A DNA stretch of 64,000 nt from positions 12,592 through 76,591 of the forward strand of contig CAYRXT010000005.1 in the NCBI GenBank assembly GCA_964428315.1, read 5' to 3'. Of this stretch, positions 11,003-24,451 are shown piece by piece. Source of the DNA: an uncultured Planctomycetales bacterium (GTDB lineage Bacteria > Omnitrophota > Gorgyraeia > Zapsychrales > CAYRXT01). The notes below the pieces were generated by a model. That model had not been told where the DNA came from. It worked only from the letters and a program-made list of their open reading frames with translations, and ran no database searches. A program made the position numbers and the translations under genes. Numbering within the stretch: position 1 is the stretch's first letter; each line of letters opens with the position of its first letter.

Positions 11003-12004
11003 TCAGCGGATACTGCGGCAGGAATCGCGGGAAACAAGTTCCGGGGGCAGCAAGACCTTGACGCCGGTTTTTTTCTTCCCTGTTATAACACCGTTCAAAT
11101 AACGCACGGCGTCCTCGGCCATCTTGAACAACGGCTGGCGGATCGTCGTCAAACCGATCGCTCCGTAAATGGAAGCGGGATTATCATCAAAACCGATAAC
11201 CGATATATCCTTGGGCACCTTCAGACCCCGTTCCATGGCCACGGCAATGGCCTCCAGCGCCATGTCGTCGCTTGCCGCGAAGATGGCCGTCGGAGGCTCC
11301 TTCAGCGCAAAAAATTGATCGGCCGCCAGACGCGCGCATCGTCGGGAATAATCGCCCGTGTAAATATACTCTTCCCTCAGAGGGACCTTCGACTTCTTCA
11401 TCGTCTCCTTGAACCCTTCCAGCCGATGAAGTCCCGACTGCGTCTTCAAGGCACCGCTTATGGTGGCGATGCGCCTGTGGCCGAGATTGATGAGATAATC
11501 CGCAGCCATGCGCCCTCCCTTGCGGTTATCCACGGCAATGTAACTCACGTCCATATCCTCAACGACATTATTGATGACGACACAGTGCAGACTCTCTTCC
11601 ATGGCCGTTTCGATCTGGGAACGGTTCTCGATGATGTCGGCGAAGATGACACCGCCGACGTTGGAGGTGTTAAGCGAATTATAGCCGTTAGTGATGTGGA
11701 AGATAAGATCCAAACGGAGGGTTTCGCACGCGTGCCCAACGCCCCGGATGAGCTCCATGGCGTAATAGGAATGGAACACGCCCGGATAACCCGGCATGAC
11801 CAGTCCGATCGCGTTGTTGAAACCCCGGGCCAGACGCTGCGCCGTGACATTGGGCTTGTACTTTAAATAGGCGATAGCCTCTTCGACCTTGATGCGGTTG
11901 GATTTGGTAACAGTGGGAATGTTGTTGAGAACACGGGAAACGGTGGTAATGGAGACCCCGGCCCGCCGCGCCACATCTTCAATGCTGACTTTTTTTTCCG
12001 TCAC
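11003..12004 (-). CDS. LacI-family transcriptional regulator
   Basis: N-terminal HTH VSIEDVARRAGVSITTVSRVLNN and a periplasmic-binding-protein-like sugar-binding core; GTG start. Confidence 0.9.
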   Translation of the reverse strand: MTEKKVSIEDVARRAGVSITTVSRVLNNIPTVTKSNRIKVEEAIAYLKYKPNVTAQRLARGFNNAIGLVMPGYPGVFHSYYAMELIRGVGHACETLRLDLIFHITNGYNSLNTSNVGGVIFADIIENRSQIETAMEESLHCVVINNVVEDMDVSYIAVDNRKGGRMAADYLINLGHRRIATISGALKTQSGLHRLEGFKETMKKSKVPLREEYIYTGDYSRRCARLAADQFFALKEPPTAIFAASDDMALEAIAVAMERGLKVPKDISVIGFDDNPASIYGAIGLTTIRQPLFKMAEDAVRYLNGVITGKKKTGVKVLLPPELVSRDSCRSIR

Positions 12005-12013
12005 AGGGCCAAC

Positions 12014-13273
12014 CTACCTCACATTATCTCCGACCTGGATCCGCGCGCCTTTTTGTTTGATATCGGCGGCGGAGATGTCTTTTCTGACCTGAATGATTTC
12101 CAGGCCAGCGATATATTTGCCGTTACGATAGATGCTCAAGTTATCGCCGATACGGACCCCCGAATTCAAGCCAAGGTCCGTGATGACGAAGTTGTTCTCT
12201 TCGTTCACGCTTAACACATGTCCTTCGAAACCCGGCGCCATCCGGCTTTCCTGGGCGACAGCCGGGCCGCCCGCTTTAGGCGCGCTGACAACGATAGGCG
12301 GGAGTTCGACGGATTGCGTCCCCTCCTCTTCGATCGGCTCGCTCAGTTTTCTGTCCAGGGTTTCTTTGATGTCAAGGACCTCGTCGATGCGGTTCTGGAT
12401 GACGCTCTCGGTCTCTGCCAGTTTGCGTTCAACCTTGTCCTTGCTTTCCCTCAGCCGGGCGATGCTCTTTTCGAGAGCGATCTTTGTCGACGTCAGTTCC
12501 TTGACCTTTGAGCGAAGGTCGAGATTCTCTTCCTTGATCTTGTCCAGCCGCTGGTCTATGAACCTTTTGTCATTCTTTTCCCGGGCCAGTTCGATGGACA
12601 AGGTATTCGCCAGATCTTCGCTGTATTTGATCTGCCTCTGGATCTCCTCTTTCTGGTTGCGCAACTGGCTCAATTCCAGGTCAAGATCGGAATTCACTTT
12701 CTTCAATTCTTCGAGGCTCACTTCATACTGGCTCAATTGGGACTGCAGTTCGTTGATTTTCAGTTCGAGAGCGGCCTTGTCTTTCAAGACCCGCGCCCAG
12801 TAGCGCTCCTGGTCCTCGGTGGCCCCGGTGGCCATGACCGGAGGCTTCCCGGGCTGTTCTTCTTCCGGTTCCGGCTCGCGTTCTTTATAGATGACCTTCG
12901 GCTTCTCCTGCAGTTTGGTGATGAGCTCGTCCCGTTCGCGTCGCAGATCGTTCACGCGGTTGCGCCAGTTGTCGCGCTCGGATCTCAACGAATTGATCGT
13001 ATTTTCCAGACTGCTGATCTGGCCGTTGAGATCGGAGAGCTGCTGCTGAAGCCGCTCATTATTCTGCTTCGCCTCCTCGATTTTGCTCTCGGTATCCTTG
13101 ACCCTGGCAACCAGCTCCTGCTCGCGTTCGCCGGCCTGCGTCAACTCACCCTGCAATGTGGTCTTCTCGTTCTCCAAGGCGGTCTTTTGGCTCAAAGTCG
13201 AAAGAACCATAAACACGCTTCCACCCAGCAAGAGGAACAAAATGATAATAATGATCTTGCCGATTTTTGTCAT
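12014..13273 (-). CDS. Membrane-anchored coiled-coil protein with C-terminal small beta-barrel domain
   Basis: N-terminal TM IIIIILFLLLGGSVFMVL, ~300 aa of heptad-rich E/K/Q/L sequence, then a C-terminal region GHVLSVNEENNFVITDLGLNSGVRIGDNLSIYRNGKYIAGLEI. Ends 9 nt before the LacI gene. Plus-strand ORFs over it are low-complexity shadows. Confidence 0.65.
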   Translation of the reverse strand: MTKIGKIIIIILFLLLGGSVFMVLSTLSQKTALENEKTTLQGELTQAGEREQELVARVKDTESKIEEAKQNNERLQQQLSDLNGQISSLENTINSLRSERDNWRNRVNDLRRERDELITKLQEKPKVIYKEREPEPEEEQPGKPPVMATGATEDQERYWARVLKDKAALELKINELQSQLSQYEVSLEELKKVNSDLDLELSQLRNQKEEIQRQIKYSEDLANTLSIELAREKNDKRFIDQRLDKIKEENLDLRSKVKELTSTKIALEKSIARLRESKDKVERKLAETESVIQNRIDEVLDIKETLDRKLSEPIEEEGTQSVELPPIVVSAPKAGGPAVAQESRMAPGFEGHVLSVNEENNFVITDLGLNSGVRIGDNLSIYRNGKYIAGLEIIQVRKDISAADIKQKGARIQVGDNVR

Positions 13274-13427: not shown

Positions 13428-14675
13428 CTATGCCTGGGCGAGTATTTGACGGACCACCAGGCTGGCGGCCCCGACCGCAACGGCGTTATTCCCGAGACGT
13501 GAAGGGACAATCTTAACGGCCTGGGCCATCTCCGCGTAAGCGTGATTGGCGACAGACTCTTTAACAGCATTCAGGAAGACGTTGCCGCCCTCCTCCATCC
13601 CACCGCCGATAACGACGGCCTGAGGGTTGAGAAAATTCACCAGGAAGGCGACCTTGAGGCCGATCTTGAGTCCGGCCCGCCGCACAACATTGACCGCGAT
13701 GGGGTCGCCGTCTCTGGCGGCCTCAAAAACATGGCGCAGCGTGATGCTTGTCAGATTGCCGCCGGCTCTTAATAAAAGCTTATGGCTCCGGTTTTCCGGC
13801 CTCCGAAGGATTTCCCGCGTCTGCCGAACAATCCCCAAGTCGTCTTCCCAGGCTTCGAGAAAATGGATGTCCTTGGGGTTGAGGTCAAGGTATTCTCCCG
13901 CCGGGCAATCTCTCAGGGCCAGCTCGCCCGCGCATCCGCTGGCGCCCCGATAGACCTCCCCGTTCAAGATGAGTCCGCTCCCCACTCCGGAAAACATATA
14001 AATCAAATCACGTATCTCGGGATCGGAATTCATCCACTGCTCTCCGAAACACGAAACGGTGGCGTCGTTTTCCAGACAGCAGGGCAGGCCGAACCGTGAT
14101 TCCAGGTTTTCCTTGATGGGGGCGTAAATAGTGACGTACTCGCACCCTCCGGTCGGTCTTTTTTGCGGCCATCGGATCGTCCCGCTCTGATTGTCGACAA
14201 TACCCGCGATCCCGACGCCGATGCCGGCGAGTTTTTTGCGGTCATCGGACGGAAGCTGATCCCTCAGTTCGTTAATCATGCCGCTGGCATAGTCCAGGAT
14301 ATCGGTGGCATTTCGATAGGGGCTTTCCTTGACGACACGGGCGACGATATTGCCGTTAAGGTCGACGACCACCCCGACCATATCCAGCAGGTTGAGGCCG
14401 ATGCCGATAGCCAGATTTACCCGCCCGTTGATCTCCAGAAGGGCCGGCCGGCGCCCGCCGGCTGAAACGTCAAGTGCTTTGATATTAACGAGTTTTGCCC
14501 GTAAATAATGATCGATATAATTCGATATGGTAACAATATTGAGGCCGGACATCCGGGAGATATCCGCCTTGCTGACCGGGCCTACTCGCCGGATTGTCTC
14601 GAGGATGGCGAGATTCCGTCTGGATCTTTCGTTCAAGTTTTCTTCCTGAAGCTGAAGGGCTTTCACGGTTTTCAT
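13428..14675 (-). CDS. ROK-family transcriptional regulator (NagC/XylR-like)
   Basis: N-terminal wHTH followed by a ROK sugar-kinase-like fold with Gly-rich motifs (GIGVGIAGIVD) and Cys residues (CCLEND...C...C) consistent with the ROK zinc site. Confidence 0.9.
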   Translation of the reverse strand: MKTVKALQLQEENLNERSRRNLAILETIRRVGPVSKADISRMSGLNIVTISNYIDHYLRAKLVNIKALDVSAGGRRPALLEINGRVNLAIGIGLNLLDMVGVVVDLNGNIVARVVKESPYRNATDILDYASGMINELRDQLPSDDRKKLAGIGVGIAGIVDNQSGTIRWPQKRPTGGCEYVTIYAPIKENLESRFGLPCCLENDATVSCFGEQWMNSDPEIRDLIYMFSGVGSGLILNGEVYRGASGCAGELALRDCPAGEYLDLNPKDIHFLEAWEDDLGIVRQTREILRRPENRSHKLLLRAGGNLTSITLRHVFEAARDGDPIAVNVVRRAGLKIGLKVAFLVNFLNPQAVVIGGGMEEGGNVFLNAVKESVANHAYAEMAQAVKIVPSRLGNNAVAVGAASLVVRQILAQA

Positions 14676-14755
14676 TTTTTTTCGCTTTCTCCAGAAGGTC
14701 TTGGTCTATAGTACAGTATGGTTGCAGCGTTGTCTATCTTTTCCTGCCAAATTAC

Positions 14756-15385
14756 TCATTCATACTTGATCCCGTCCAGGTAAAAGGTGCACCCTTCAGA
14801 ATTGACATCCGCGTTGGTCGCCCAGGCAAACCCGCCGCTGATATAGGTCAGATCCTTGCCCCTCAGATCAATCGCATATTGCTTCCACTGCGTCGTCAAG
14901 AAGACCGGTCCGACCATCGCGCTGTCCGAATCTGGATAATCACCCGGTATGCCGCCCATTTTGAATTCTTCGATCCGTTCCCTTCCGGTTTCGCCCCTGG
15001 CCCAAAACGTCAGCTTGCTCGCGCCGGTAAGGTCAAAACCACCCTTACGGTTACCCCAATTATTCGCAGGGTTTTGCCAGTAGACCCCCGCCCATTGCTG
15101 ACCCTGCCTGGAGCATTCGACATCATAGACGATTTGGATGCAGGTATTGCCCGAATGACAATCTTTTTGCCAGGCCTCGTTAATCTTGATGCATCCGGCA
15201 TCACCCATAAAACCCGAAGGGATAAAATGATTGTCTCGCGACCCTTTGTCCTGATAGACGACAAAAGGCGCGAAATCGCTCTGTGCCTCCTGTTGCCCGG
15301 AAACCGACTGGCTCTGCGTTGTCCCTTTTTCACAACCGAACAAAACACAAAAAGACAACGCCCCTGCAAGCAATATCTTCCGCAT
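14756..15385 (-). CDS. Secreted lipoprotein, probable carbohydrate-binding beta-sandwich
   Basis: MRKILLAGALSFCVLFGC lipobox. Body GVYWQNPANNWGN...GFDLTGASKLTFWARGETG is aromatic and Gly rich with no catalytic motifs. The CBM-like call is inference. Confidence 0.6.
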   Translation of the reverse strand: MRKILLAGALSFCVLFGCEKGTTQSQSVSGQQEAQSDFAPFVVYQDKGSRDNHFIPSGFMGDAGCIKINEAWQKDCHSGNTCIQIVYDVECSRQGQQWAGVYWQNPANNWGNRKGGFDLTGASKLTFWARGETGRERIEEFKMGGIPGDYPDSDSAMVGPVFLTTQWKQYAIDLRGKDLTYISGGFAWATNADVNSEGCTFYLDGIKYE

Positions 15386-15448
15386 GGTCACAACCTTCCT
15401 TGTTTTCTTATTGCACTTGATGATAATACCGCCGGGTTAACTAACGGC

Positions 15449-16306
15449 TTAGCTCATTTCTTCCAGTTCATCCAGCTTCTGCTGCGCGGCTTCGGCCGGT
15501 TTCCAGAACCAGCCCTGCGGATCCCAGCTCTGGGCGAAGTAGTAGTCGTCGATAACCTTCTTATAGGCCTCTTTGGCCTTACCGTGCTGGCCGGCCTTGC
15601 GGTAGGCCTCGCCGCGTATGAAATAACAGGTCCCCACATCATTGAGGGCCCAGAAAGAAAATATCTTCTCATTGGATTCCCATGGATATTCGTTCAAGGA
15701 GGCCTGCATTTCCTGGGCCTTCTTCGCATACAGCTCGATGCATTTGTCCGTATAAGCCAGAACAGCCTCCAGATTGTCCTGAGACAGCGCCTGCCAAGCC
15801 TTGGCCGACAATGTGGAAGACGTGTAATCACCGAAATCGATGTTACTGCCGGATTCGAGATTGGCCAGCTTTTCCTTCGCGGCCTCGGCCGGTTTCCAAA
15901 ACCAGCCCTTCGTGTCCCAGCACTGGCCGTAGGTGTAGTCGTTGATCAGTTTCGTGTAAACTTCCTTGGCCTCGTCAATCATATTGGCCTTGCGATAGGC
16001 CTCCCCCTGAATAAACAGACAGGTGGCGACATCATTCAGCGCCCAGTATTTGAAGATCTCTTCATTGGTCCCCGATGGATATTCGTCCAAACCCGCCTGC
16101 ATCTCCCTGGCCTGCGCGGCGTAAAGTTCGACGCATTTGTTCGTGTAGGCCAGAACTCCTTCGATATCGCCTTTCTCCAGCGCATCCCAGGCCTTGGATG
16201 CCAGGGTTACCGAACGGTAATCGCCGAAATTGTAGGCGGCCGCCAGTGTAGGACACATCCAGGTAACGCCCAAAGCAATAACGAGTGTGACGATCCATTT
16301 TTTCAT
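15449..16306 (-). CDS. Secreted protein made of two tandem copies of a ~125-aa Trp/Tyr-rich helical domain (unassigned family)
   Basis: Signal peptide MKKWIVTLVIALGVTWMCPTLAAA; strong AAGGAGGAAG SD. The two halves align ~55% identical. Core motif: FWALNDVGTCYFIRGEAYRKA...AKEAYKKVIDDYYFAQSWDPQGWFWKPAEAA. Confidence 0.75.
   Translation of the reverse strand: MKKWIVTLVIALGVTWMCPTLAAAYNFGDYRSVTLASKAWDALEKGDIEGVLAYTNKCVELYAAQAREMQAGLDEYPSGTNEEIFKYWALNDVATCLFIQGEAYRKANMIDEAKEVYTKLINDYTYGQCWDTKGWFWKPAEAAKEKLANLESGSNIDFGDYTSSTLSAKAWQALSQDNLEAVLAYTDKCIELYAKKAQEMQASLNEYPWESNEKIFSFWALNDVGTCYFIRGEAYRKAGQHGKAKEAYKKVIDDYYFAQSWDPQGWFWKPAEAAQQKLDELEEMS
15470..16290. repeat. Tandem direct duplication (~405 bp x2, ~75% nt identity) inside gene 15449..16306
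   Basis: ccggtttccagaaccagccctgcggatcccagc...(15494-) re-occurs as ccggtttccaaaaccagcccttcgtgtcccagc...(15884-), and the similarity continues for ~400 bp. Confidence 0.8.
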
Positions 16307-16334
16307 GACTCTTCCTCCTTTTGTTGTTACCGTT

Positions 16335-18764
16335 TTACTTGTTCCACAATTCCTTGTACAGAAAATAACTCTCCCTCAACTGCCGCAGAAACGGGCTGTG
16401 TTTCCCGTTGCCCTGACCGATCAAGCCAAACCATTCCTCGTACATGTACCCGTCGGGGAAAGGTCCCTGGGCCCCGGCCGTTTTGTCGTGGTAAGCGGGT
16501 TCGTAATTTTTCCACCACTCATCCATCCATTCAAAGACAATGCCGCCGATCGCGTTGCCCGCTCCTTCCTTGGTCCCCGCGGCGTTTTTCTCGATATCCA
16601 TCCAGTTGCCCAGGTGGTAATCGGCCTGCGCCTCTTCCGCGTCTTCCCTCGAAAGGTGACCGGCATAGGCGGGACAACCGTATTCCGTAATGAATCCGGG
16701 TTTCCCTGTCGCATCTGAGACCTGCTCCCAGAAAGCGCCGAAGCCGTAATCCCCGCGGTAGGCGTTCGCGGCAAAGGCATCGACATTCGGACAGAACTTG
16801 GCAAAGATATCCAAGTATAATACATCACCGTTGCACATGGCAACCGGATGATCCGGATCGACGGATTTGATCCAGGCGGCCACTTCATCGACGAATGCGT
16901 AATAGGCTTCGGGTTTTGTGTCGGCGTTGCAGGCCACCCCGTAATTGTTTTCATTGCCCAAAAGCCACATGAGGATGTAAGGTTCGTCCTTGTATTCCAT
17001 GACGATTTTTTTGACGGAATCCAGCATGTTTTTCCGGTGCTCCGGATTTTCGTAATCCGTCCCCTCATACCAGCTGGCCCCCGAACCCAGGGCGTATTTA
17101 CCGAGAAAATCGCCCATAACCACCATAATGCCTGTCTCTTCGTACATCGCACGCAGAAGCTCCTTGTCGGGCTCGAAGGGCTGATGATAAACACGGATGA
17201 CGTTGGCGCCCAGCTCCTTGAGCAACCGGAAATCCCCAACGACGGGTTCATCTTCATCCTGTTGGTTGTTACGATTGGCGTCGACCCAGCTGTCATAAGG
17301 GCCGTCGGCCAGACCGTTCCCGTTCGTGTCCTCGGTCATCCAGTTGGTAAGCGTCCCTTTGTCCGGGCTCTGCCCCACCTTGGTCGCCACGTAGGTGATC
17401 CCTTTGATGATAAACGGTTTTCCTTCGACAAGGATCTGCCAGTGGTCGTTTTCGTACTGGACCAACTGCACCCGGCCTTCATTTAACCTGCGCTTGATCT
17501 CGCCGAGCTTCGCCCGCTTTTTCCCAAAACCGATCTGGTCTATGACCCTTGCGAACCTGCTTCGCACTTTGTCCCATAAAGACAAGCGCCGCACGCGTCC
17601 GGGATACGTGATAACCTGATCGTTCGAGACATCGTTGTCCGCCCCGTTGATCACCCTGATCTTCGCCCATTCAAACGTCAATCCAAGTTCCGGATGAATA
17701 CGGATCAGATGACGGATCTTGGCTATGGCCGCCTGCCCCGGGTACCAGGGCGTATTCCAGTACGTCCGTCCGGTCGAACGGGGAAAATGCACGACGATAG
17801 CATGATAGGCCTTGATGGCTTCATAATACATCCGGGCCTTTTCGAAGATCAAACCGATATAAAACAGCTTGACACCCCACGGCTCCGGGGCCAGCGCCCA
17901 CTTATACAGGGCCGCCTCCAAGTCATCAGTATGCACGAAATCCCAGTGGCTGCCTTCCAGCCGTCCCTCTTCTTTAGCTTTTTCGTAATTGGGATCTTTG
18001 CGGACAGCGCCGGTATTAGGATAGACGCCCTCTCCGACGGCAGCAGAAAGCCCGACGGGGTCGTTTACCTTGTATGAATACTGTTTGGTCCCCACGTTCA
18101 TGAAGGTGCCGTATTTGGTGTAATCAACGACCTGAACGCCGGGCTCGGCCAGACGCGGCATAGTCATTATCCCGCGGTCGACCTTCGGTGGCTCCTTATC
18201 CTTCTCTTCCGCGCGCCCTTCCAGCATGTCTATGCTGGCCTGACTTTTTTCCGCGATCGACCAGTACCATCCGCGGGGATCCCAGGCCTGAGCCCATCTG
18301 TAATCGTCTATGATCCTTTGGAAAATCTCTATCGCCTCCTCGGCCTGCCCGTTATTCATCAGTGTTTCCGCCCGGATAAACATGCACGTGCCCACGTCAT
18401 TCAGGACCTGGTACTGGACAACGGCATCCCGCGGGGGGAAATCTTCGAGCTGGGCGTTGAGTTCAAAGGCCTGCGCTCCATAAGTGTTGAAACACTGTTG
18501 TGTCAGCCTGAAAACTTCATCAACCTTATTGTTGCCGGAGGCCTCCCAGGACATGCGGACCAGTTCCCGTGAGCTGACTGCTTCTGCGACGGCCTCCTCC
18601 GTTTTTTCTGAACCGGAAGGGTCCACCCGCTCGCCGGTCTCATCACCGGTTTGATGAGCGCGGTTTGCCTCGGAAGTCTGGGCATGAGATACGGAGATAT
18701 GGAAATAGGAAACGATCCAGGCGAACAATACAATCAAAAAAATTTGACATATCTTATTATTCAT
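16335..18764 (-). CDS. Secreted clan GH-A (GH2/GH5-like TIM-barrel) glycoside hydrolase with N-terminal copies of the Trp-rich repeat domain
   Basis: Signal peptide. N-terminal region contains YQVLNDVGTCMFIRAE...IIDDYRWAQAWDPRGWYWSIAE, the same domain as gene 15449..16306; a degenerate second copy is KWALAPEPWGVKLFYIGLIFEKA...WYPGQAAIAKI. C-terminal barrel has NVIRVYH, LLGNENN (acid/base E) and FITEYG (nucleophile E). Confidence 0.8.
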   Translation of the reverse strand: MNNKICQIFLIVLFAWIVSYFHISVSHAQTSEANRAHQTGDETGERVDPSGSEKTEEAVAEAVSSRELVRMSWEASGNNKVDEVFRLTQQCFNTYGAQAFELNAQLEDFPPRDAVVQYQVLNDVGTCMFIRAETLMNNGQAEEAIEIFQRIIDDYRWAQAWDPRGWYWSIAEKSQASIDMLEGRAEEKDKEPPKVDRGIMTMPRLAEPGVQVVDYTKYGTFMNVGTKQYSYKVNDPVGLSAAVGEGVYPNTGAVRKDPNYEKAKEEGRLEGSHWDFVHTDDLEAALYKWALAPEPWGVKLFYIGLIFEKARMYYEAIKAYHAIVVHFPRSTGRTYWNTPWYPGQAAIAKIRHLIRIHPELGLTFEWAKIRVINGADNDVSNDQVITYPGRVRRLSLWDKVRSRFARVIDQIGFGKKRAKLGEIKRRLNEGRVQLVQYENDHWQILVEGKPFIIKGITYVATKVGQSPDKGTLTNWMTEDTNGNGLADGPYDSWVDANRNNQQDEDEPVVGDFRLLKELGANVIRVYHQPFEPDKELLRAMYEETGIMVVMGDFLGKYALGSGASWYEGTDYENPEHRKNMLDSVKKIVMEYKDEPYILMWLLGNENNYGVACNADTKPEAYYAFVDEVAAWIKSVDPDHPVAMCNGDVLYLDIFAKFCPNVDAFAANAYRGDYGFGAFWEQVSDATGKPGFITEYGCPAYAGHLSREDAEEAQADYHLGNWMDIEKNAAGTKEGAGNAIGGIVFEWMDEWWKNYEPAYHDKTAGAQGPFPDGYMYEEWFGLIGQGNGKHSPFLRQLRESYFLYKELWNK

Positions 18765-18887: not shown

Positions 18888-19748
18888 TTAGTCTCCGACC
18901 GATCCAGTTGCAAGTCCTTTAACTATATGTCTTTGCATCAACACATAAACAAGAATAACGGGCACGGCCGTGATCGTCAATCCGGCCATAAGAAGAGGAT
19001 ATTCTACAATATGAATACCCTGGAATTCCATTAAACCCTTTTGCAGCGGCATCAGGGTTTCATCGTTTAACAAAAGATTGGCCAGTATATACTCATTCCA
19101 GACATTCAAAACGTTAAATATCACAATTACGGCAATCGCCGGTTTGGCCATGGGCAAAGCGACATGCCACCAGATGCCCCATTTGGAACACCCGTCCATC
19201 CGCGCAATATCTTCAAGGGCCGAAGGCATTTTGTCGAAAAACGTCTTGAGAAGGAAGATGCTCAGGGCCAGCCCCACATTGATCATACAAAGGATGTAAC
19301 CGATCCGCGTATTGATAAGATGCAGTTTATTCATCAGCACATACAAGGGGACAAAGCTCCCCGGCAAAGGGATCATCATTGCCGCCAGAAACATGAAAAA
19401 AAGAACACGCCGCCCCGGGAATCTTAACCGGGAAAAGGCATAGGCCGCCAAAGAAGCGACCAGAATAATCCCCGCGACAACGCAAACTGTATAAATCACG
19501 CTGTTGACAAAATAAAGGCCGAACTGTCCTTCGCTCCAGGCCTTAACGAAATTTTCCGGATGGAGCTCAGACGGCAAGAGGGCCTTTTCAACAAATATGG
19601 TCTCATTGTCCATCAGGGCCGAACGGACCATCCAGAGAAGAGGGAAAAGACACGTAACAGTCACCGCCAGGAGAAGGATATGAAGAAAAACATTGCGGAC
19701 ATGCAATCTGAAACGCGCTTGCGTCTGCGTCAAGGCTATGCCATTCAT
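18888..19748 (-). CDS. ABC sugar transporter permease (MalG/UgpE-like)
   Basis: Six-TM MalG-type topology; the EAA-like loop IARMDGCSKWGIWWHVALPMAKP. Confidence 0.9.
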   Translation of the reverse strand: MNGIALTQTQARFRLHVRNVFLHILLLAVTVTCLFPLLWMVRSALMDNETIFVEKALLPSELHPENFVKAWSEGQFGLYFVNSVIYTVCVVAGIILVASLAAYAFSRLRFPGRRVLFFMFLAAMMIPLPGSFVPLYVLMNKLHLINTRIGYILCMINVGLALSIFLLKTFFDKMPSALEDIARMDGCSKWGIWWHVALPMAKPAIAVIVIFNVLNVWNEYILANLLLNDETLMPLQKGLMEFQGIHIVEYPLLMAGLTITAVPVILVYVLMQRHIVKGLATGSVGD

Positions 19749-19751
19749 AGA

Positions 19752-20678
19752 CTAGGCCTGTCTCATCTTTTTGAATATGCCCATACTTATTAAAGAGACG
19801 ATAATCAAGATGAATCCGAAAAAGATGCTTTGGGCGCACGCATATCCAAAACGGTTCGTCTCCATCATGGAAGACAGGATGCGTGTTACCGGAACCGCCG
19901 TATGGTAGACCAGCCCCTGTCCGACCATCGATAAAACCAGCACAAAGACCTGCATGGACCCGAGCAGGGTCAAGATCATAACAACACCGATAACAGGCAC
20001 CATCATCGGGATAGTGACATGCCGGAAAACGTTCCAGCCTCCCGCTCCGTCAATCCTGGCGGCCTCATACAATTGGGGATCGATCGTCTGCAGGCCGGCG
20101 AGAAAAATAATGAATCCCCAGCCGAAACCTTTCCAGCTGTGCACGACGGCGATACAGGGCAGAGCCGTAGCGGGATCCGACAACCAGTTGTGCGCCAAAT
20201 GGGGCAGGCCGGTCCCGGCCAACATATGATTCAAAAACCCGATGTGTTCGCCCTGTTGTGTTCCAGAATAAAGGATCCAGGACCAGACCATCCCTACGAC
20301 GACCTCCGACAGAACGGGCGGGATGTAAAAAATAACCCGGTAAAATTTCCTCATCCGGATATCCTGATCACAAGCGAGGGCCAGGGCAAAAGCCAAGGCG
20401 TTCTGGAACGTCAGGGCAATCAGCGTAATGAAACCGGCGTTACGTAAAGAAATACCCCATGTCGCATCCTGCATCAGTTCCCTGAAATTCATCAACCCCA
20501 CGAATTCCCGATGCAGGCTGATGCCGTTCCATTCGTAAAACGACAAGCGGAAGATCTCAAAAAAGGGATAGACATAAAAAACGGCGAATATGGCCACTGC
20601 CGGCACAATAAACAGGATATTCTCGAAGTTTTCCCGAAAACGGTTTAAAGCGGCTGGCTGTATTCGGGCTATGGACAT
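19752..20678 (-). CDS. ABC sugar transporter permease (MalF/UgpA-like)
   Basis: MalF-type permease with the EAARIDGAGGWNVFRHVTIP EAA motif. Confidence 0.9.
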   Translation of the reverse strand: MSIARIQPAALNRFRENFENILFIVPAVAIFAVFYVYPFFEIFRLSFYEWNGISLHREFVGLMNFRELMQDATWGISLRNAGFITLIALTFQNALAFALALACDQDIRMRKFYRVIFYIPPVLSEVVVGMVWSWILYSGTQQGEHIGFLNHMLAGTGLPHLAHNWLSDPATALPCIAVVHSWKGFGWGFIIFLAGLQTIDPQLYEAARIDGAGGWNVFRHVTIPMMVPVIGVVMILTLLGSMQVFVLVLSMVGQGLVYHTAVPVTRILSSMMETNRFGYACAQSIFFGFILIIVSLISMGIFKKMRQA

Positions 20679-20740
20679 ATGGTCAACCTGTTATGGGTCA
20701 ATCGCGCGGTCCCGGTTCTGTGCGCGGACGGACGTTTCTG

Positions 20741-22027
20741 TCAACGCCGGATCTTTTGCATCTGCCGCTCTTTGACGTCCTGGATGTCCTTGGCTGCCTG
20801 CTCGGGCGTCTTTTGCCCGATAATGATAGTCTGTATCCCCCTGGCGAACGCCTCGGACACAACTTCATCTTCATTATAAGGCCAGATGCTGGGATGCGTG
20901 CTCTGATCCATAGCGCCGACAAACTGCGCCAAGAGCTCGGGCGCTTCCGATAAGGCGTGACGGTTGGCCGGAAGGTTGCGCGTCTTCTCCGCCAGGAACG
21001 CCTGCTGTTTCTTGGCCGTCAACCAGCGGAGAAAATCGACGGCCTTGTCCTTGAGGGGCGAAGAGTTGTTGACGACGAATGAGGATCCGGCGCCGCCCCA
21101 TATCTTCAAGGGATAATTTTTGCTGACGGGCGGCGGCCGCATAACGCCGTAATCCAGGTCGGGATTCATCTTATGATAAACGTTCACGCACCACGATCCG
21201 TTAAAGGCGAAGGCCGCCCTTTCGAGGGCAAAATCCTGTTCCGCGTATTTATTACCCTTGATCACGATGCCCTCCATCAGGGCCTTATGATCGACGAGGG
21301 CCTTAAAAATGTTGAATACCTCAATCCAGTCGGGATCCGTATACGGCACCTCTCCCTGAAAGGTGTCCATAATCTTGTCCTCTCCCATAATATTGAAAGC
21401 ATAGTTCATGGCATAACAGTTGATCAGCCACAACTCGCTCCAACCCGAAACAAAAGGCGCGATCCCCACCCTGTTCAGGGCATCTACGGCCTCCAGGTAC
21501 TCATCAAAAGTGGAAGGAGGACGTCTGACACCCGCCTTTTCCAGTAACCCCCTGTTGTAGACCATTTGGACGCTGGTAATGTCGATGGGCACGCCGTACA
21601 GGCCCGGCTCGACACCCTCGAGATTGCCTTTTTCAAAACGGTTCACCGCCAGGGCCTTATCAAGAAAGGTCTTATGCCACCGACCGTTTTCGTCTTCAAA
21701 GGCATCCGTCAGATCGGCGACAAAACCGCTCTTGATAAACGAGGCGAAAATCTTTTTCTTGTCCAAAACGCCGTAAATATCCGGCAGGACGCTTGCCTGG
21801 GCCGCCGCTACTATTTTTCGTGAATAATCTCCTGAAGGGGCGTAAAGCTTGAACCTGACCTTGATCCCGGTCTCATCTTCATAGTCACGGGCAAGTTCCC
21901 GGAAGGCATCATGCCGGTCGGTCATCCAGTGCCAGACGACGAGAGTGTCCGGATCCCGGCGCGGCTGGCCGCATCCCGCGAACAACAGCAACACAGCCAT
22001 AATAACTATTGGCAGAGATCTGTTCAT
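20741..22027 (-). CDS. ABC transporter extracellular solute-binding lipoprotein (family 1, oligosaccharide)
   Basis: Lipobox LLFAGC; ~430 aa SBP_bac_1-like. No ATPase gene in the cluster, so a shared MsiK-type ATPase encoded elsewhere is assumed. Confidence 0.85.
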   Translation of the reverse strand: MNRSLPIVIMAVLLLFAGCGQPRRDPDTLVVWHWMTDRHDAFRELARDYEDETGIKVRFKLYAPSGDYSRKIVAAAQASVLPDIYGVLDKKKIFASFIKSGFVADLTDAFEDENGRWHKTFLDKALAVNRFEKGNLEGVEPGLYGVPIDITSVQMVYNRGLLEKAGVRRPPSTFDEYLEAVDALNRVGIAPFVSGWSELWLINCYAMNYAFNIMGEDKIMDTFQGEVPYTDPDWIEVFNIFKALVDHKALMEGIVIKGNKYAEQDFALERAAFAFNGSWCVNVYHKMNPDLDYGVMRPPPVSKNYPLKIWGGAGSSFVVNNSSPLKDKAVDFLRWLTAKKQQAFLAEKTRNLPANRHALSEAPELLAQFVGAMDQSTHPSIWPYNEDEVVSEAFARGIQTIIIGQKTPEQAAKDIQDVKERQMQKIRR

Positions 22028-22036
22028 AGGGCTTTC

Positions 22037-24451
22037 TCACATCCAGACTTTGACCTGATGCAGTCTGCCGTCGCCGAACGGCCGGATGAGGTTGCCTTCG
22101 ATTTCCTGGTCGTCCACCAGGATTTGAGACACCCCGCTTTCACGGCCCTTAGGATTAAGGATCTCGATCTGGTATATATCGCCGCGGAAGGGCCGCTGGA
22201 CGCTACATTTCTTCCATCCTTTGGGGATACAGGGATCGATCCTTAGTCCTTCGAAGTCCCGGCGCACCCCCAGGATCCATTCCGTCGCGGTCATGAAGCA
22301 CCACCCCGATGAACCCGTAATCCAGGTGAACGCGCCTTCACCGTAACGGTAGGGATTCTTCGGCCCGACAAGATATTCCGCAAGAACATAGGGTTCCGTT
22401 TTATAAAGATCCATATCCTTCTGGGCGTTCGGCATGATCTTTCTGACGGCCTCATAGGCCTTGTCCCCGCAGCCGCACATCGCGTAAGCGACGGCCATAA
22501 AAGTCGCCGCGTGGCAGAACACCGCGGCATTCTCCTTTGTCCCTTCGGAAAACATGCTGACGCGACCAAGCCGTCCGACCCATGAACTGTAAGCCGGGGC
22601 AAAAAGAGCGAGCCCGTGCGGACCGTTCAGATACCTTTCCACCGAACGGAAAAGTTTCTGTTTCCTCTCATCGCTGACAACGCCGGCCAGGATACCCCAC
22701 GCCTGTGCTGTCAGGAAGATCTTCCCTTCTTTGTCGTTCTTGCTGCCGTAAACCTGTCCCTTGTCATCGAAACCGCGGACATACCAGGAGCCGTCCCATC
22801 CCACCGCGTTGATCCGTTCGTCCATCGTCCTGGACATTTGGAGATACTCTTCTCTCTTGTCCTGCTGGCCGAGGAGGTCAAAGAGATCCGCCAGCATCTT
22901 CATGGAACGGACAAGGGCCTGGGCCAGCCAGATGCTTTCCCCTCGGTGCCTGATGCCGGCCGCGTCGATGGCATCGTTCCAGTCCGCGTGCCCGATCCGG
23001 GGCAGGCCCTTTTCTCCCACATCGTTAAAACAGTATAAAAGATTTTTCTCGAGATGCTCTATGAGGGTCCCCTCACCGTCCGTTTGAGATCCTCCGGTCC
23101 AATGAAGGTCGATCTCCCACCCGTCTTTCCATTTATCCTTCAGATAAGGGACATACTCCAACAGCAGGCTTTTATCTCCCGTTTCCTTGATATAGGCGCT
23201 GACTGTGGCCGTGAGCCAGACCTGGTGGTCTTTGTTCGGACGGTATTTGTGGGGCCCGGTGGTATCGGACCATCCCGGCGCGCTGGTCCCGTCGCGGCGA
23301 ATCAGTGACGCCAGCTTGAGAATCTTGGCGCGCGTCAGGTCGTGATTGATCGACACGATCGCTTCCGAATCCTGGCAGGAATCCCGGTATCCCCGTCCTC
23401 CCGATCCTTCGTGATAATAACTGGGAGACCGCGACCAGAAATTGCAGATATAGATCTGGTATTTGAGCCAAATATTGACAAGGACATTGAGATCTTTATC
23501 CGGCGTCTCCACCGTGACATTATCCAGGATCCTGTTCCGCCAGATCTGCTTCGTCCTGGCCAGTTCCTTTTCGGCCGTTCTGACATCCCTGTATTTGGCC
23601 AGGATCCTGGGGATCCTTGTGATCGCGTCAGACTGGCCGAGGACAACCGTGAATGTTTTCGTCTGGCCCGGTTTCAGCTTAACCCTGTGCCTGAAGGCCC
23701 CGATGCCGTCCTCCCCCGAACACAGCGACGTATTCCTGGCCCTGGTTTCTCCAATAGCCTGCGGATTCTCTTCCGTGTTATAAGGGCCGACAAATTCATT
23801 CTTCCGGGTGAAATGTCCCGATATCCCTAAAGACGGGGAAAAGAAAATCTGTCCGCGGAACGGCTGAATGTTCATCCCTTTCCATTCGGCGGTTTTTTTG
23901 GCAAAGATGGCCTTGTGTTTCTTGTCGAACCAGACGCGGTTGTAAAGGTTCATGATGTTGCGGTACCGCAATTCTTCATGGTAGTCGCCGATGAGGAATT
24001 CGACGTAAGGATAGACCTCCAGATTCCTGTCCCGACGGGACTTGTTTGTCATCTTGACGATCCAGACCTCACAGGGATCGTCCTCGGGCACAAAGTATGT
24101 CACCTGGGAGGCTATCCCGCTGTTAACGGATTCGATGTCGGTATAGCCTAGTCCGTGCCGGCATTCATAGAACGACGGTTTGACGCGCAACGGCTGGTAG
24201 GTCGCCGCCCAGGCCTTTTTCCCTTCACGCACAAAGAGGTATTTGCCGGGACGGTCAAAATGCCAGCATTCGGGAAGCCATCGGGTGATGCGGTGGCTGC
24301 GGCAGTCTTTATAAAAACTGTATCCCCCCGCGCACTGCGAGATGATCGAACAATATTCTTTGTTTGTGAGATAATTGATCCAGGGGCGGGGAGGCTTACA
24401 GGTCGATAGGATGAACTCGGTCCCATCCGAAGAAAAATGCCCGTATTTCAT
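22037..24451 (-). CDS. GH94-family glycoside phosphorylase (cellobiose/cellodextrin/chitobiose phosphorylase-like)
   Basis: 804 aa, cytoplasmic (no signal peptide). Contains GSGGRGYRDSCQDSE and IGHADWNDAID motifs and the (alpha/alpha)6 catalytic region typical of GH94. Substrate specificity not assignable. Confidence 0.8.
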   Translation of the reverse strand: MKYGHFSSDGTEFILSTCKPPRPWINYLTNKEYCSIISQCAGGYSFYKDCRSHRITRWLPECWHFDRPGKYLFVREGKKAWAATYQPLRVKPSFYECRHGLGYTDIESVNSGIASQVTYFVPEDDPCEVWIVKMTNKSRRDRNLEVYPYVEFLIGDYHEELRYRNIMNLYNRVWFDKKHKAIFAKKTAEWKGMNIQPFRGQIFFSPSLGISGHFTRKNEFVGPYNTEENPQAIGETRARNTSLCSGEDGIGAFRHRVKLKPGQTKTFTVVLGQSDAITRIPRILAKYRDVRTAEKELARTKQIWRNRILDNVTVETPDKDLNVLVNIWLKYQIYICNFWSRSPSYYHEGSGGRGYRDSCQDSEAIVSINHDLTRAKILKLASLIRRDGTSAPGWSDTTGPHKYRPNKDHQVWLTATVSAYIKETGDKSLLLEYVPYLKDKWKDGWEIDLHWTGGSQTDGEGTLIEHLEKNLLYCFNDVGEKGLPRIGHADWNDAIDAAGIRHRGESIWLAQALVRSMKMLADLFDLLGQQDKREEYLQMSRTMDERINAVGWDGSWYVRGFDDKGQVYGSKNDKEGKIFLTAQAWGILAGVVSDERKQKLFRSVERYLNGPHGLALFAPAYSSWVGRLGRVSMFSEGTKENAAVFCHAATFMAVAYAMCGCGDKAYEAVRKIMPNAQKDMDLYKTEPYVLAEYLVGPKNPYRYGEGAFTWITGSSGWCFMTATEWILGVRRDFEGLRIDPCIPKGWKKCSVQRPFRGDIYQIEILNPKGRESGVSQILVDDQEIEGNLIRPFGDGRLHQVKVWM

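Follow-up and report, generated by a model that had tools for sequence, protein, structure and literature searches.

A TPR-type extracytoplasmic module shared by a secreted protein and a GH158-like glycoside hydrolase of Omnitrophota, and its candidate role in glycan recognition

What is the aromatic-rich domain that occurs twice in one secreted protein and opens the glycoside hydrolase encoded next to it in a sugar uptake cluster of Omnitrophota, and what might it bind? The initial annotation, made on a window of 64,000 nucleotides (the whole stretch of DNA analyzed), had left this domain unassigned and seen in it a possible new carbohydrate-binding module (CBM). As modeled, the repeating unit spans ~127 residues and belongs to the TPR superfamily (YbgF/TPR_6 type), as an extracytoplasmic module specific to its lineage. 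It makes up a well-defined subfamily of TPR proteins rather than a system of a new kind.

Repeat units in W285 and W809

Both open reading frames named at the outset stand, with 285 and 809 aa, and they divide as follows.

15449..16306, minus strand: W285 gene, secreted two-unit TPR-type protein, 285 aa (open reading frame)
16235..16306, minus strand: signal-peptide-like N-terminus of W285, aa 1-24, MKKWIVTLVIALGVTWMCPTLAAA (predicted structure and sequence)
15851..16231, minus strand: W285 unit 1, aa 26-152 (196.8-bit profile match)
15455..15838, minus strand: W285 unit 2, aa 157-284 (196.4-bit profile match)
16335..18764, minus strand: W809 gene, secreted 809-aa protein with a unit, a predicted half unit, a β-sandwich, and a GH-A TIM barrel (open reading frame)
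18216..18578, minus strand: W809 full unit, aa 63-183 (46/119 residues, 39%, identical to W285 unit 2)
17697..17921, minus strand: W809 predicted half unit, aa 282-356 (predicted secondary structure, high pLDDT)
17394..17681, minus strand: W809 β-sandwich domain, aa 362-457 (strands in the AlphaFold model)
16338..17252, minus strand: W809 GH-A (β/α)8 catalytic domain, aa 505-809, closest to GH158 (phmmer and Foldseek)

The start of W285 lies 8 nt downstream of a ribosome-binding site (AAGGAGG), and 28 nt separate the gene from the one upstream. Its AlphaFold model (mean pLDDT, 89.1) begins with a hydrophobic helix at residues 3 to 15 and a low-pLDDT stretch at 17 to 21, and this signal-peptide-like N-terminus is presumably cleaved. 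The remainder consists of two units of ~127 aa, in agreement with the two-domain make-up first proposed: residues 26 to 150 and 157 to 281 align without gaps with 78/125 positions identical (62%), and unit 1 against unit 2 gives a BLOSUM62 score of 446, compared to 32 ± 5.8 for shuffled sequences (z ~71). The tandem repeat in the DNA is real as well, with a period of 393 bp rather than ~405 bp; the ~75% DNA identity claimed for it is 76% in the best local alignment (270/357) and 70% in codon register (262/375). Tandem Repeats Finder gave no report of this duplication, and no additional unit copies were found elsewhere in the window. The Trp/Tyr richness holds, at 4.6% W and 6.7% Y.

Each unit is predicted to fold into two helix hairpins, an aromatic β-hairpin (QCWDPxGWFW), and a capping helix, and the stacked helix-turn-helix pairs superpose on solved TPR domains. 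In unit 1 of the W285 model, the helices span residues 32-44, 48-71, 88-106, and 110-123, followed by the β-hairpin (129-130/136-137) and the cap helix (139-152); the second helix of the first hairpin (48-71) is unusually long, and the place of a third TPR repeat is occupied by the β-hairpin and cap helix. The DSSP register, in which 129-130 pairs with 136-137, puts W130/F136 and W135/W137 on opposite faces, so that one conserved aromatic pair should, according to the model, be solvent exposed.

Four Pfam models score above gathering thresholds on W285: TPR_6 (39.2 bits; threshold, 26.3) at residues 96-124 within unit 1, and TPR_2 (34.7; 27), TPR_1 (31.4; 27.8), and TPR_8 (28.5; 25.7) at residues 227-252 within unit 2. 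There is one sequence-recognized TPR motif of ~30 residues per unit, and where the unit profile hits consensus TPR proteins of PDB, the match is limited to positions 69-103. The term "unassigned" therefore suits the unit as a whole, which no Pfam model spans, but not the ~30 residues in each unit that the TPR models match; no CBM or DUF model matched. Nor is the unit a plain TPR pair, since the aromatic β-hairpin and an ALNDV motif run through the whole family. Over 264 divergent units from 150 diverse representatives, in which the motifs first quoted are kept, conservation peaks at W15, ALNDV, and QCWDPxGWFW.

The closest solved structure is the C-terminal TPR domain of YbgF/CpoB (TPR_6, PF13174; PDB 2xev), with 15% identity to the unit. 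YbgF/CpoB identity itself was rejected, TIGR02795 reaching 17 bits against a cutoff of 90.1. Unlike YbgF/CpoB, W285 has neither a coiled-coil trimerization domain nor tol-pal context, its neighbors being a GH, an ABC importer, and LacI; by sequence, the units differ further in the extra β-hairpin and the ALNDV motif, and also in being arrayed in tandem or appended to glycoside hydrolases.

W809 (AlphaFold pLDDT, 81.7; pTM, 0.80) matches Glyco_hydro_2_C (2.5e-14) and TPR_6 (1.6e-07) in Pfam. That the domain opens this protein is confirmed by the full unit at residues 63 to 183 (pairwise z = 36 to 45 against shuffles), whose model repeats the helix/hairpin/cap architecture of the W285 units. The "degenerate second copy" reported behind it is, by predicted structure, the C-terminal half of a unit rather than a full copy: the model shows at high pLDDT a TPR hairpin (helices 296-309 and 313-326), then an aromatic β-hairpin of sequence TYWNTPWYP (332-340), followed by a capping helix at 342-356. 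Sequence scores here are weak, with 2.7 bits for the unit profile on residues 283-328 and pairwise scores for 281-360 that still exceed shuffles (z of 5.9 to 6.9), where the best shuffle equaled the observed score in one of two comparisons; T334, W336, T338, P339, W340, Y341, and P342 are invariant in 55 orthologues.

The barrel of W809 finds its best sequence and fold match in GH158. phmmer against PDB returned GH158(Pro) (9oro, 3.4e-14) and BuGH158 (6pal, 2.2e-07), and Foldseek ranked GH158 first (3.6e-12), then GH2 and GH72; identity to the GH158 structures is only ~22%, with GH2 and GH72 close behind by fold. The invariant E605 and E694 sit in LLGNENNYG and FITEYG motifs, the NEN and TEYG glutamates being a point of likeness to GH158 endo-β-1,3-glucanases. 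Besides the barrel, W809 carries a unit at its N-terminus, a predicted half unit, and a β-sandwich, whereas the matched solved GH158 chains comprise only ~400 to 424 residues. Of 1,171 homologues, the best 120 retain the fusion, with lengths of 736 to 856 aa and identities of 57 to 74%.

Distribution, operon context, and fusion partners

The unit family is widespread though unnamed. It counts 1,349 cluster representatives (50%-identity clusters) at E ≤ 1e-3, of which 854 remain at E ≤ 1e-10, and species-representative genomes contain it at no fewer than 565 sites, so that a spurious duplication confined to one genome does not account for it. W285 alone has 1,688 homologues at E ≤ 0.001, and wherever one of the 120 listed carries a source name, it is that of Omnitrophota or a neighboring candidate group. 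Proteins carry 1 to 6 units (a single one in 82/150 representatives), and a hydrophobic segment lies at the N-terminus of 116 of the 140 representatives that are complete. Free-standing secreted proteins made of units only are kept in nearly every related genome, in some with three units instead of the two of W285, and local paralogue expansions place 5 to 8 unit-bearing open reading frames within one locus.

Both proteins belong to a cluster of seven to nine genes that is tightly conserved across Omnitrophota, made up of GH94, sugar ABC importer, TPR-GH, TPR protein, lipoprotein, coiled-coil protein, and LacI, with synteny in ~70/80 loci.

22037..24451, minus strand: GH94 disaccharide phosphorylase (Pfam GH94 domains)
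18888..22027, minus strand: sugar ABC importer (Pfam SBP_bac_1/8 and BPD_transp_1)
20741-22027, minus strand: solute-binding lipoprotein of the importer (Pfam SBP_bac_1/8)
19752-20678 and 18888-19748, minus strand: two ABC permeases (Pfam BPD_transp_1)
14756..15391, minus strand: W211, lipoprotein-like, 211 aa, same operon, downstream of W285 (conserved neighbor)
12014..13273, minus strand: CC419, membrane-anchored coiled-coil protein, 419 aa (coiled-coil-type Pfam matches, sub-threshold only)
11003..12004, minus strand: LacI-family regulator at the cluster end (Pfam LacI and Peripla_BP_3)

Among the 80 related loci, W211 is present in 74, the GH catalytic domain in 71, CC419 in 65, and the LacI regulator in 61, and the importer genes are syntenic in 54 to 59. 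GidA, an unrelated neighbor, is retained in 58; since the loci are mostly orthologous and GidA persists too, synteny alone is weak evidence. The link of unit, ABC importer, and GH-A enzyme recurs with changed gene order in two divergent lineages (L006 and L090), and one locus (L089) holds a family member with no carbohydrate genes within 10 kb. W211 has 2,543 homologues; it has no match in Pfam, NCBIfam, or PDB, and no Pfam domain appears among its listed homologues. W285 orthologues are conserved along their full length (mean column identity, 72%), with 59 to 73% identity across the 80 loci, comparable with GidA. No signal peptide was seen at the N-terminus of the GH94 protein, whose best PDB match is cellobiose phosphorylase (3qde, 3.5e-137). 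The β-glucan utilization locus first proposed is plausible as a β-glucan or oligosaccharide locus, judging by a GH94 nearest to cellobiose phosphorylase and a GH-A domain nearest to GH158 laminarinases.

The module is genuine, recurrent, and mobile, being attached as a discrete noncatalytic part to several carbohydrate-active enzymes: GH158-like proteins (W809 and P0295), a GH128 protein with two units (P0285), a GT2 cellulose-synthase-like protein (P0290), and a protein with CHB_HEX_C (P0259). The GH128 domain of P0285 matches 6uaq at 1.5e-26 and also 6uax, 6uav, and 8j3x, the last three being GH128 β-1,3-glucanases (PMC10956234). P0290 has the topology TM-two units-TM bundle-GT2, with the units in a periplasmic loop, and P0390 the topology kinase-TM-two units, that of a receptor kinase ectodomain. 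Other carriers include an RHS protein and giant proteins of up to 5,953 aa. The units are extracytoplasmic.

Candidate roles of the unit

Glycan binding, and the kind of glycan bound, are what we infer, and tentatively: the unit may be a ligand-recognition and targeting module for β-glucan chains or oligosaccharides, a protein-docking role being nearly as likely. The full and half units of W809 would hold its catalytic barrel on the substrate, and the free W285 would be a noncatalytic substrate-capture partner that keeps pieces of glucan, periplasmic or on the cell surface, close to W809 and to the importer's solute-binding protein. After import, cleavage of the disaccharide would fall to the cytoplasmic GH94 phosphorylase. 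Fusion partners that are mostly glycan enzymes and strongly glycan related (GH158-like, GH128, GT2, and CHB_HEX_C) argue for this role, as do the operon shared with a GH-A enzyme and a sugar importer, the hairpin aromatic pair predicted to be exposed, and the modular behavior (1 to 6 copies, single-unit proteins, and N-terminal hydrophobic segments). The topologies of P0390 and P0290 fit sensing of an outside ligand, the conservation of W15, ALNDV, and QCWDPxGWFW would be better explained by a shared ligand or shared core than by diverse protein partners, and the expansions of 5 to 8 open reading frames resemble, by analogy, the diversification of glycan-binding proteins. Against glycan binding, the conserved tryptophans could be a buried core that caps the solenoid, the 72% full-length conservation of W285 looks more like that of a complex-held protein than of a typical CBM, L089 lacks carbohydrate genes, and the RHS, giant-protein, and kinase partners are not glycan specific. 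The co-encoded GH94 is nearest to cellobiose, not laminaribiose, phosphorylase, whereas the GH partners resemble β-1,3-glucanases (the activity of GH158), so that the proposed ligand is not consistently defined.

YbgF/CpoB binds proteins, and TPR domains are overwhelmingly protein-protein interaction modules. A possible though somewhat doubtful alternative is accordingly protein docking or scaffolding, in which the units assemble an envelope complex and tether the enzyme near the importer without direct glycan binding; the W809 unit might dock with the free two- or three-unit protein, or with W211, the solute-binding protein, or the coiled-coil protein. All fold neighbors are protein-binding TPRs (YbgF, BamD, LpoP, PilF, Hop, and KLC), the same module sits on the enzyme and in a multicopy free protein, W285 is highly conserved over its whole length (72% mean column identity; 59 to 73% across the 80 loci), at a level comparable with GidA, and synteny with W211 (74/80) and the coiled-coil protein (65/80) is tight. 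However, expansions reach at least 12 units in one locus without a matching expansion of partners, W211 is missing from the called genes of one locus (L091), and unit copy number (2 or 3) does not follow that of W211; fusion to a kinase as ectodomain and to GT2 as periplasmic loop suggests sensing or handling of a nonprotein ligand, and even paralogues that have diverged widely share one small set of invariant residues.

It is improbable that the unit is a cell-envelope anchor, one that binds, for example, peptidoglycan or another polymer in the wall or outer membrane of the cell itself or of its prey and so holds giant proteins, toxins, and exported enzymes on the surface in the manner of LysM, SLH, or PASTA. 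Wall-binding modules have a similar range of partners (here hydrolases, an RHS protein, the ectodomain of a receptor kinase, proteins reaching 5,953 aa, and secreted proteins consisting of tandem units only), and Omnitrophota giant proteins and secreted GHs have been discussed as cell-wall-targeting effectors (10.1101/2023.11.21.568195; 10.64898/2026.06.07.730766). The core context is nevertheless a nutrient-uptake operon (ABC importer, GH94, and LacI) rather than a wall-remodeling or secretion locus, the Pfam search gave no likeness to any known wall-binding module, and anchoring overlaps with glycan binding, the ligand being the sole difference.

Quite unlikely, too, is an ordinary structural TPR, with units as spacers or folding and stability elements, the Trp hairpin as a hydrophobic solenoid cap, and the operon link as synteny inherited within a single phylum: Pfam already calls the unit a TPR, short TPR arrays require capping elements, and the 80 syntenic loci are for the most part orthologous with the unrelated GidA also kept (58/80), but spacers are seldom so conserved, selection on this large family is strong (854 representatives at E ≤ 1e-10, with 1 to 6 copies per protein), units-only secreted proteins are maintained in nearly every related genome, and the link to importer and GH-A enzyme recurs rearranged.

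Likeness to polysaccharide-handling proteins

Should the unit bind glycans, comparison is invited with SusD-type starch binders, which are built on a TPR scaffold; SusD-like proteins, from the polysaccharide utilization loci of Bacteroidota, are noncatalytic helical glycan capturers for import, encoded beside glycanases and a transporter. The likeness to W285 is one of functional analogy only, size and architecture being very different. SusD/RagB identity was rejected, as W285 has no SusD/RagB Pfam match, and the locus contains no SusC/TonB-dependent transporter, its transporter being an SBP-dependent ABC system. [quoted passage not shown] A precedent is PgaA, whose TPR domain is reported to bind the polysaccharide PNAG (PMC9384988). 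The TPRs of the exopolysaccharide exporters PgaA, BcsC, PelB, and AlgK are long arrays on outer-membrane porins in synthase operons, whereas the units form separate modules of ~127 residues, encoded in an operon for uptake and catabolism that includes GH94 and an ABC importer, and no sequence relation between them was detectable beyond the generic TPR signal.

Omnitrophota are widespread and uncultured, and both their nutrition and a possible dependence on hosts are of interest. Glycan binding by the unit would point to a core β-glucan-harvesting system in this phylum and would provide a CAZyme annotation marker for >1,000 protein clusters called "tetratricopeptide repeat" or "hypothetical." Even as a docking module, the unit would leave the seven-to-nine-gene cluster as a testable handle on Omnitrophota carbohydrate physiology, with two secreted families without family assignment, the unit and W211. 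A bolder version of the proposal is unlikely to hold in full: that the unit founds an α-solenoid CBM family specific for β-1,3/1,4-glucan, with the exposed hairpin Trp pair as its platform, confined to Omnitrophota and neighboring candidate phyla, and serving as a nonhomologous SusD counterpart for substrate capture in a core glucan-harvesting operon of ultra-small, possibly host-dependent bacteria.

Known CBMs are almost all β-rich folds. The unit is an α-solenoid, unlike these; we know of no CBM with its fold, and no CBM family matched it in Pfam even at E ≤ 1 or in NCBIfam. If it binds glycans, a helical TPR-based fold would be added to this almost wholly β-rich repertoire; because TPR domains mostly bind protein, the new CBM family suggested by the initial annotation is put forward here as a hypothesis. 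CAZy CBMs and the units are both discrete, noncatalytic, aromatic-rich modules that occur in tandem or free-standing, and the units are, like CBMs, attached to GH158-like and GH128 catalytic domains. In layout, P0285 (GH128 and two units) resembles CBM6E, which couples a GH128 domain with CBM6 (PMC10956234).

A TPR-type unit with a tryptophan-rich hairpin

The two adjacent genes in which the initial annotation had noticed a repeated domain are real open reading frames on the minus strand, and two further genes of the same cluster accompany them.

16335-18764, minus strand: ORF of W809, an 809-aa enzyme with one unit, a half unit, a beta-sandwich, and a GH-A catalytic domain
15449-16306, minus strand: ORF of W285, a secreted 285-aa protein of two units
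14756-15391, minus strand: gene of W211, a conserved 211-aa lipoprotein-like protein, directly downstream of the W285 gene
12014-13273, minus strand: gene of CC419, a 419-aa membrane-anchored coiled-coil protein; syntenic in 65 of 80 related loci, between a lipoprotein gene and a LacI gene

The W285 and W809 genes are 28 nt apart, and a strong ribosome-binding site (AAGGAGG) lies 5' of the W285 gene. Residues 26-150 and 157-281 of W285 align without gaps with 78 of 125 positions identical. The alignment scores 446, whereas shuffled sequences score 32 ± 5.8 (z about 71). The underlying tandem duplication, initially put at about 405 bp and 75% identity, was recovered with a period of 393 bp; its best local alignment has 76% identity, and alignment in codon register has 70%. 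Divergence is highest at third codon positions, which marks the duplication as old and under selection. Tandem Repeats Finder did not call the 393-bp duplication in the DNA, where pairwise alignment showed it, and no other copies of the unit were found elsewhere in the window. A 698-aa ORF (14594-16690, plus strand) runs antisense to the W211 gene, the W285 gene, and the end of the W809 gene; its product is of low complexity and Arg/Pro rich, and it is most likely spurious.

Each unit contains one TPR motif, for which the Pfam models TPR_6, TPR_2, TPR_1, and TPR_8 all exceed their gathering scores, although the matches are limited to about 30 of its ~127 residues. The whole unit is spanned by none of the Pfam or NCBIfam models, and phmmer and profile searches against PDB sequences returned only generic consensus-TPR matches of about 35 positions. 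In the AlphaFold model of W285 (mean pLDDT, 89.1), both units share one layout: an initial helix is followed by a long one and a short helical turn, after which a canonical TPR helix pair leads into a two-stranded beta-hairpin built from CWDxxGWFW and finally a capping helix. The layout is therefore no new fold. The unit belongs to the TPR superfamily and to no named family below that level; judged by its predicted structure, it is a distinct subfamily among short TPR_6-type domains. The nearest known structure is the TPR_6 domain of YbgF/CpoB. Membership of W285 in that family was rejected, since TIGR02795 scores 17 bits against a cutoff of 90.1 and both the coiled-coil domain and a tol-pal context are missing.

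Over 264 divergent units, the signature consists of KAW (positions 13-15), KC (32-33), YWALNDV (60-66), and AQCWDPxGWFWK (100-111). An obligatory disulfide through the Cys of QCWD is ruled out because this residue is missing in W285 unit 2 and in the W809 unit. Columns 33 and 69 correspond to C58/C96 and C189/C227 of W285; both cysteines occur in 103 units of the 264-unit alignment, and Cys69 without Cys33 occurs in only 8. This co-occurrence, suggestive only, would be consistent with a disulfide that joins the second helix to the third and with a location outside the cytoplasm.

W809 begins with a signal-peptide-like helix, from which a disordered linker leads to a full unit (residues 63-183) that is 39% identical to W285 unit 2 (z 36-45). 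What had been described as a degenerate second copy proves, in the predicted structure (pLDDT, 81.7; pTM, 0.80), to be half a unit and not a full copy, for which the profile gives only 2.7 bits; pairwise sequence comparison gives z 6-7. Residues 296-356 form one helix hairpin, the aromatic beta-hairpin TYWNTPWYP, which is invariant across 55 orthologues, and a capping helix. Two further domains follow in the AlphaFold model.

W809 residues 362-457: beta-sandwich
W809 residues 505-809: TIM barrel

The catalytic domain is nearest to GH158 endo-beta-1,3-glucanases (3.4e-14 by sequence and 3.6e-12 by fold), with GH2 and GH72 next, and E605 of the NEN motif and E694 of the TEYG motif are invariant.

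Distribution and fusion partners

Searching with the whole W285 protein at E <= 0.001 retrieved 1,688 homologues, which have either two units (~285 aa) or three (~416 aa); among the matches listed, those with source names are each a "tetratricopeptide repeat protein" of Omnitrophota or Candidatus Aureabacteria. A single-unit profile (alignment A2), searched against 1.84 billion cluster representatives, matched 1,349 of them at E <= 1e-3, of which 854 also pass E <= 1e-10. Among the best 150 of these 1,349, proteins carry 1 to 6 units, 82 have a single unit, and a hydrophobic segment opens 116 of the 140 whose sequence begins with Met. A search of one genome per species confirmed at least 565 unit sites, the best 80 of which lie in Omnitrophota MAGs, save for some evidently noisy labels. 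Among the labels on near-identical operon genes are "uncultured Planctomycetales," "Lysobacterales," "Parcubacteria group," "Bathyarchaeota," and "Margulisiibacteriota"; such labels probably stem from placeholder naming or faulty binning and not from true spread beyond Omnitrophota. Our literature searches found neither the unit nor the operon described.

Domain architectures of unit-bearing cluster representatives

P0285: signal peptide, two units, GH128 domain (6uaq match, 1.5e-26)
P0295: GH158-like domain, Ig-like domains, four units
P0290: TM helix, two units, TM bundle, GT2 cellulose-synthase-like domain
P0259: CHB_HEX_C/Fn3_assoc domains, four units
P0354/P0390: Ser/Thr kinase joined through a single TM helix to a two-unit ectodomain
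P0312: RHS repeat protein with two units
P0318: 5,953 aa, four stretches matched by the unit profile

Units are extracytoplasmic in every fusion placement, and all fusions with source names are labeled Omnitrophota except for one "Parcubacteria" label. The GH128 fusion also matches 6uax, 6uav, and 8j3x, which are GH128 beta-1,3-glucanases (PMC10956234).

The operon and its relatives

The cluster in the window runs in the order GH94 phosphorylase, solute-binding lipoprotein, two permeases, W809, W285, W211, ROK regulator, CC419, and LacI regulator, and the same order minus ROK recurs in other Omnitrophota.

Neighbors of the unit gene in the 80 related loci

GH catalytic domain: 71/80
W211: 74/80
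CC419: 65/80
LacI: 61/80
Permeases: 57-59/80
Solute-binding protein (SBP): 54/80

Missing neighbors are mostly owing to contig ends. Synteny by itself is weak evidence here, because the 80 loci are orthologous and an unrelated GidA gene is also kept. In more divergent lineages, the same operon components recur in changed orders.

L090: SBP, two permeases, two three-unit proteins, then a 1,203-aa GH2_C protein
L006: SBP, two permeases, two three-unit proteins, more ORFs with units, and finally a 602-aa GH2_C protein
L091, 641-6661: five unit-bearing genes with 12 units, upstream of coiled-coil and LacI genes

Eight unit-bearing ORFs adjoin the SBP-type ABC importer and the GH2_C gene of L006 (6165-14728), and the unit paralogues of L089 have no carbohydrate genes inside 10 kb. 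The GH94 protein of the window is nearest to cellobiose phosphorylase (3.5e-137), laminaribiose phosphorylase being far behind (2.3e-46); together with the GH158-like W809, these sequence relationships make a locus for beta-glucan or oligosaccharide uptake plausible. At the upstream (left) edges of L007-L086, the GH94 query fell into two groups of 70-76% and 24-34% identity, the latter being either a different upstream phosphorylase-like gene or an edge effect of the 8-kb flank. The ROK-family gene (13428-14675, minus strand) interrupts the otherwise conserved cluster and occupies the same place in only 2 of the 80 loci (L048 and L083), so that it looks like a lineage-specific insertion.

Possible ligands of the unit and its accompanying proteins

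Our tentative preference is that the unit would serve as a module for ligand recognition and targeting, its most probable ligands being beta-glucan chains or oligosaccharides. Counted in its favor are the repeated fusion to two beta-1,3-glucanase-type families and a processive GT2, the placement of units as a receptor-kinase ectodomain and in the synthase periplasmic loop, the invariance of the aromatic hairpin and ALNDV motif even in very divergent paralogues, the expansion of unit paralogues without matched partner expansion, and the repeated linkage of units to sugar ABC importers. In the W285 model, the hairpin register pairs 129-130 with 136-137, which would put W130/F136 and W135/W137 on opposite faces, so that one conserved aromatic pair should be exposed. 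SusD-type binders are a near functional analogy. Others are the polysaccharide-binding TPR of PgaA (PMC9384988) and classical CBMs, of which the CBM6 carried by a GH128 enzyme is an example (PMC10956234).

A docking or scaffold module is nearly as likely a reading. Two points counted against a glycan ligand bear on it: proteins are the usual partners of TPRs, and W285 orthologues are conserved over their full length, with a mean column identity of 72%, which is what proteins that sit in complexes show. Also counted against a glycan ligand, no CBM is known to have the fold of this unit, and the tryptophans may simply cap the solenoid. We think it rather unlikely that glycan binding would be shown. 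A purely structural TPR is improbable, and anchoring of these extracytoplasmic units to a cell-envelope polymer is improbable too.

In CC419, a membrane anchor at the N terminus is combined with a long coiled coil and a small domain at the C terminus. Its Pfam matches are coiled-coil models only, all subthreshold; among them, the YbgF trimerization domain (PF16331, 5.7e-4) is below the cutoff, and this match was taken as generic coiled-coil noise. W211 has a lipobox-like N terminus (VLFGC) and many conserved W, Y, and C residues, and it found no match in Pfam, NCBIfam, or phmmer and profile searches of PDB. Its homologues number 2,543, with no Pfam domain among the matches listed, and the best-scoring of them are "hypothetical proteins" of ~383 aa, which to judge by their scores may contain a tandem pair of copies. 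W211 looks like a second Omnitrophota module in the same operon without a family match, and, judged by eye, its sequence looked like a candidate beta-sandwich CBM.
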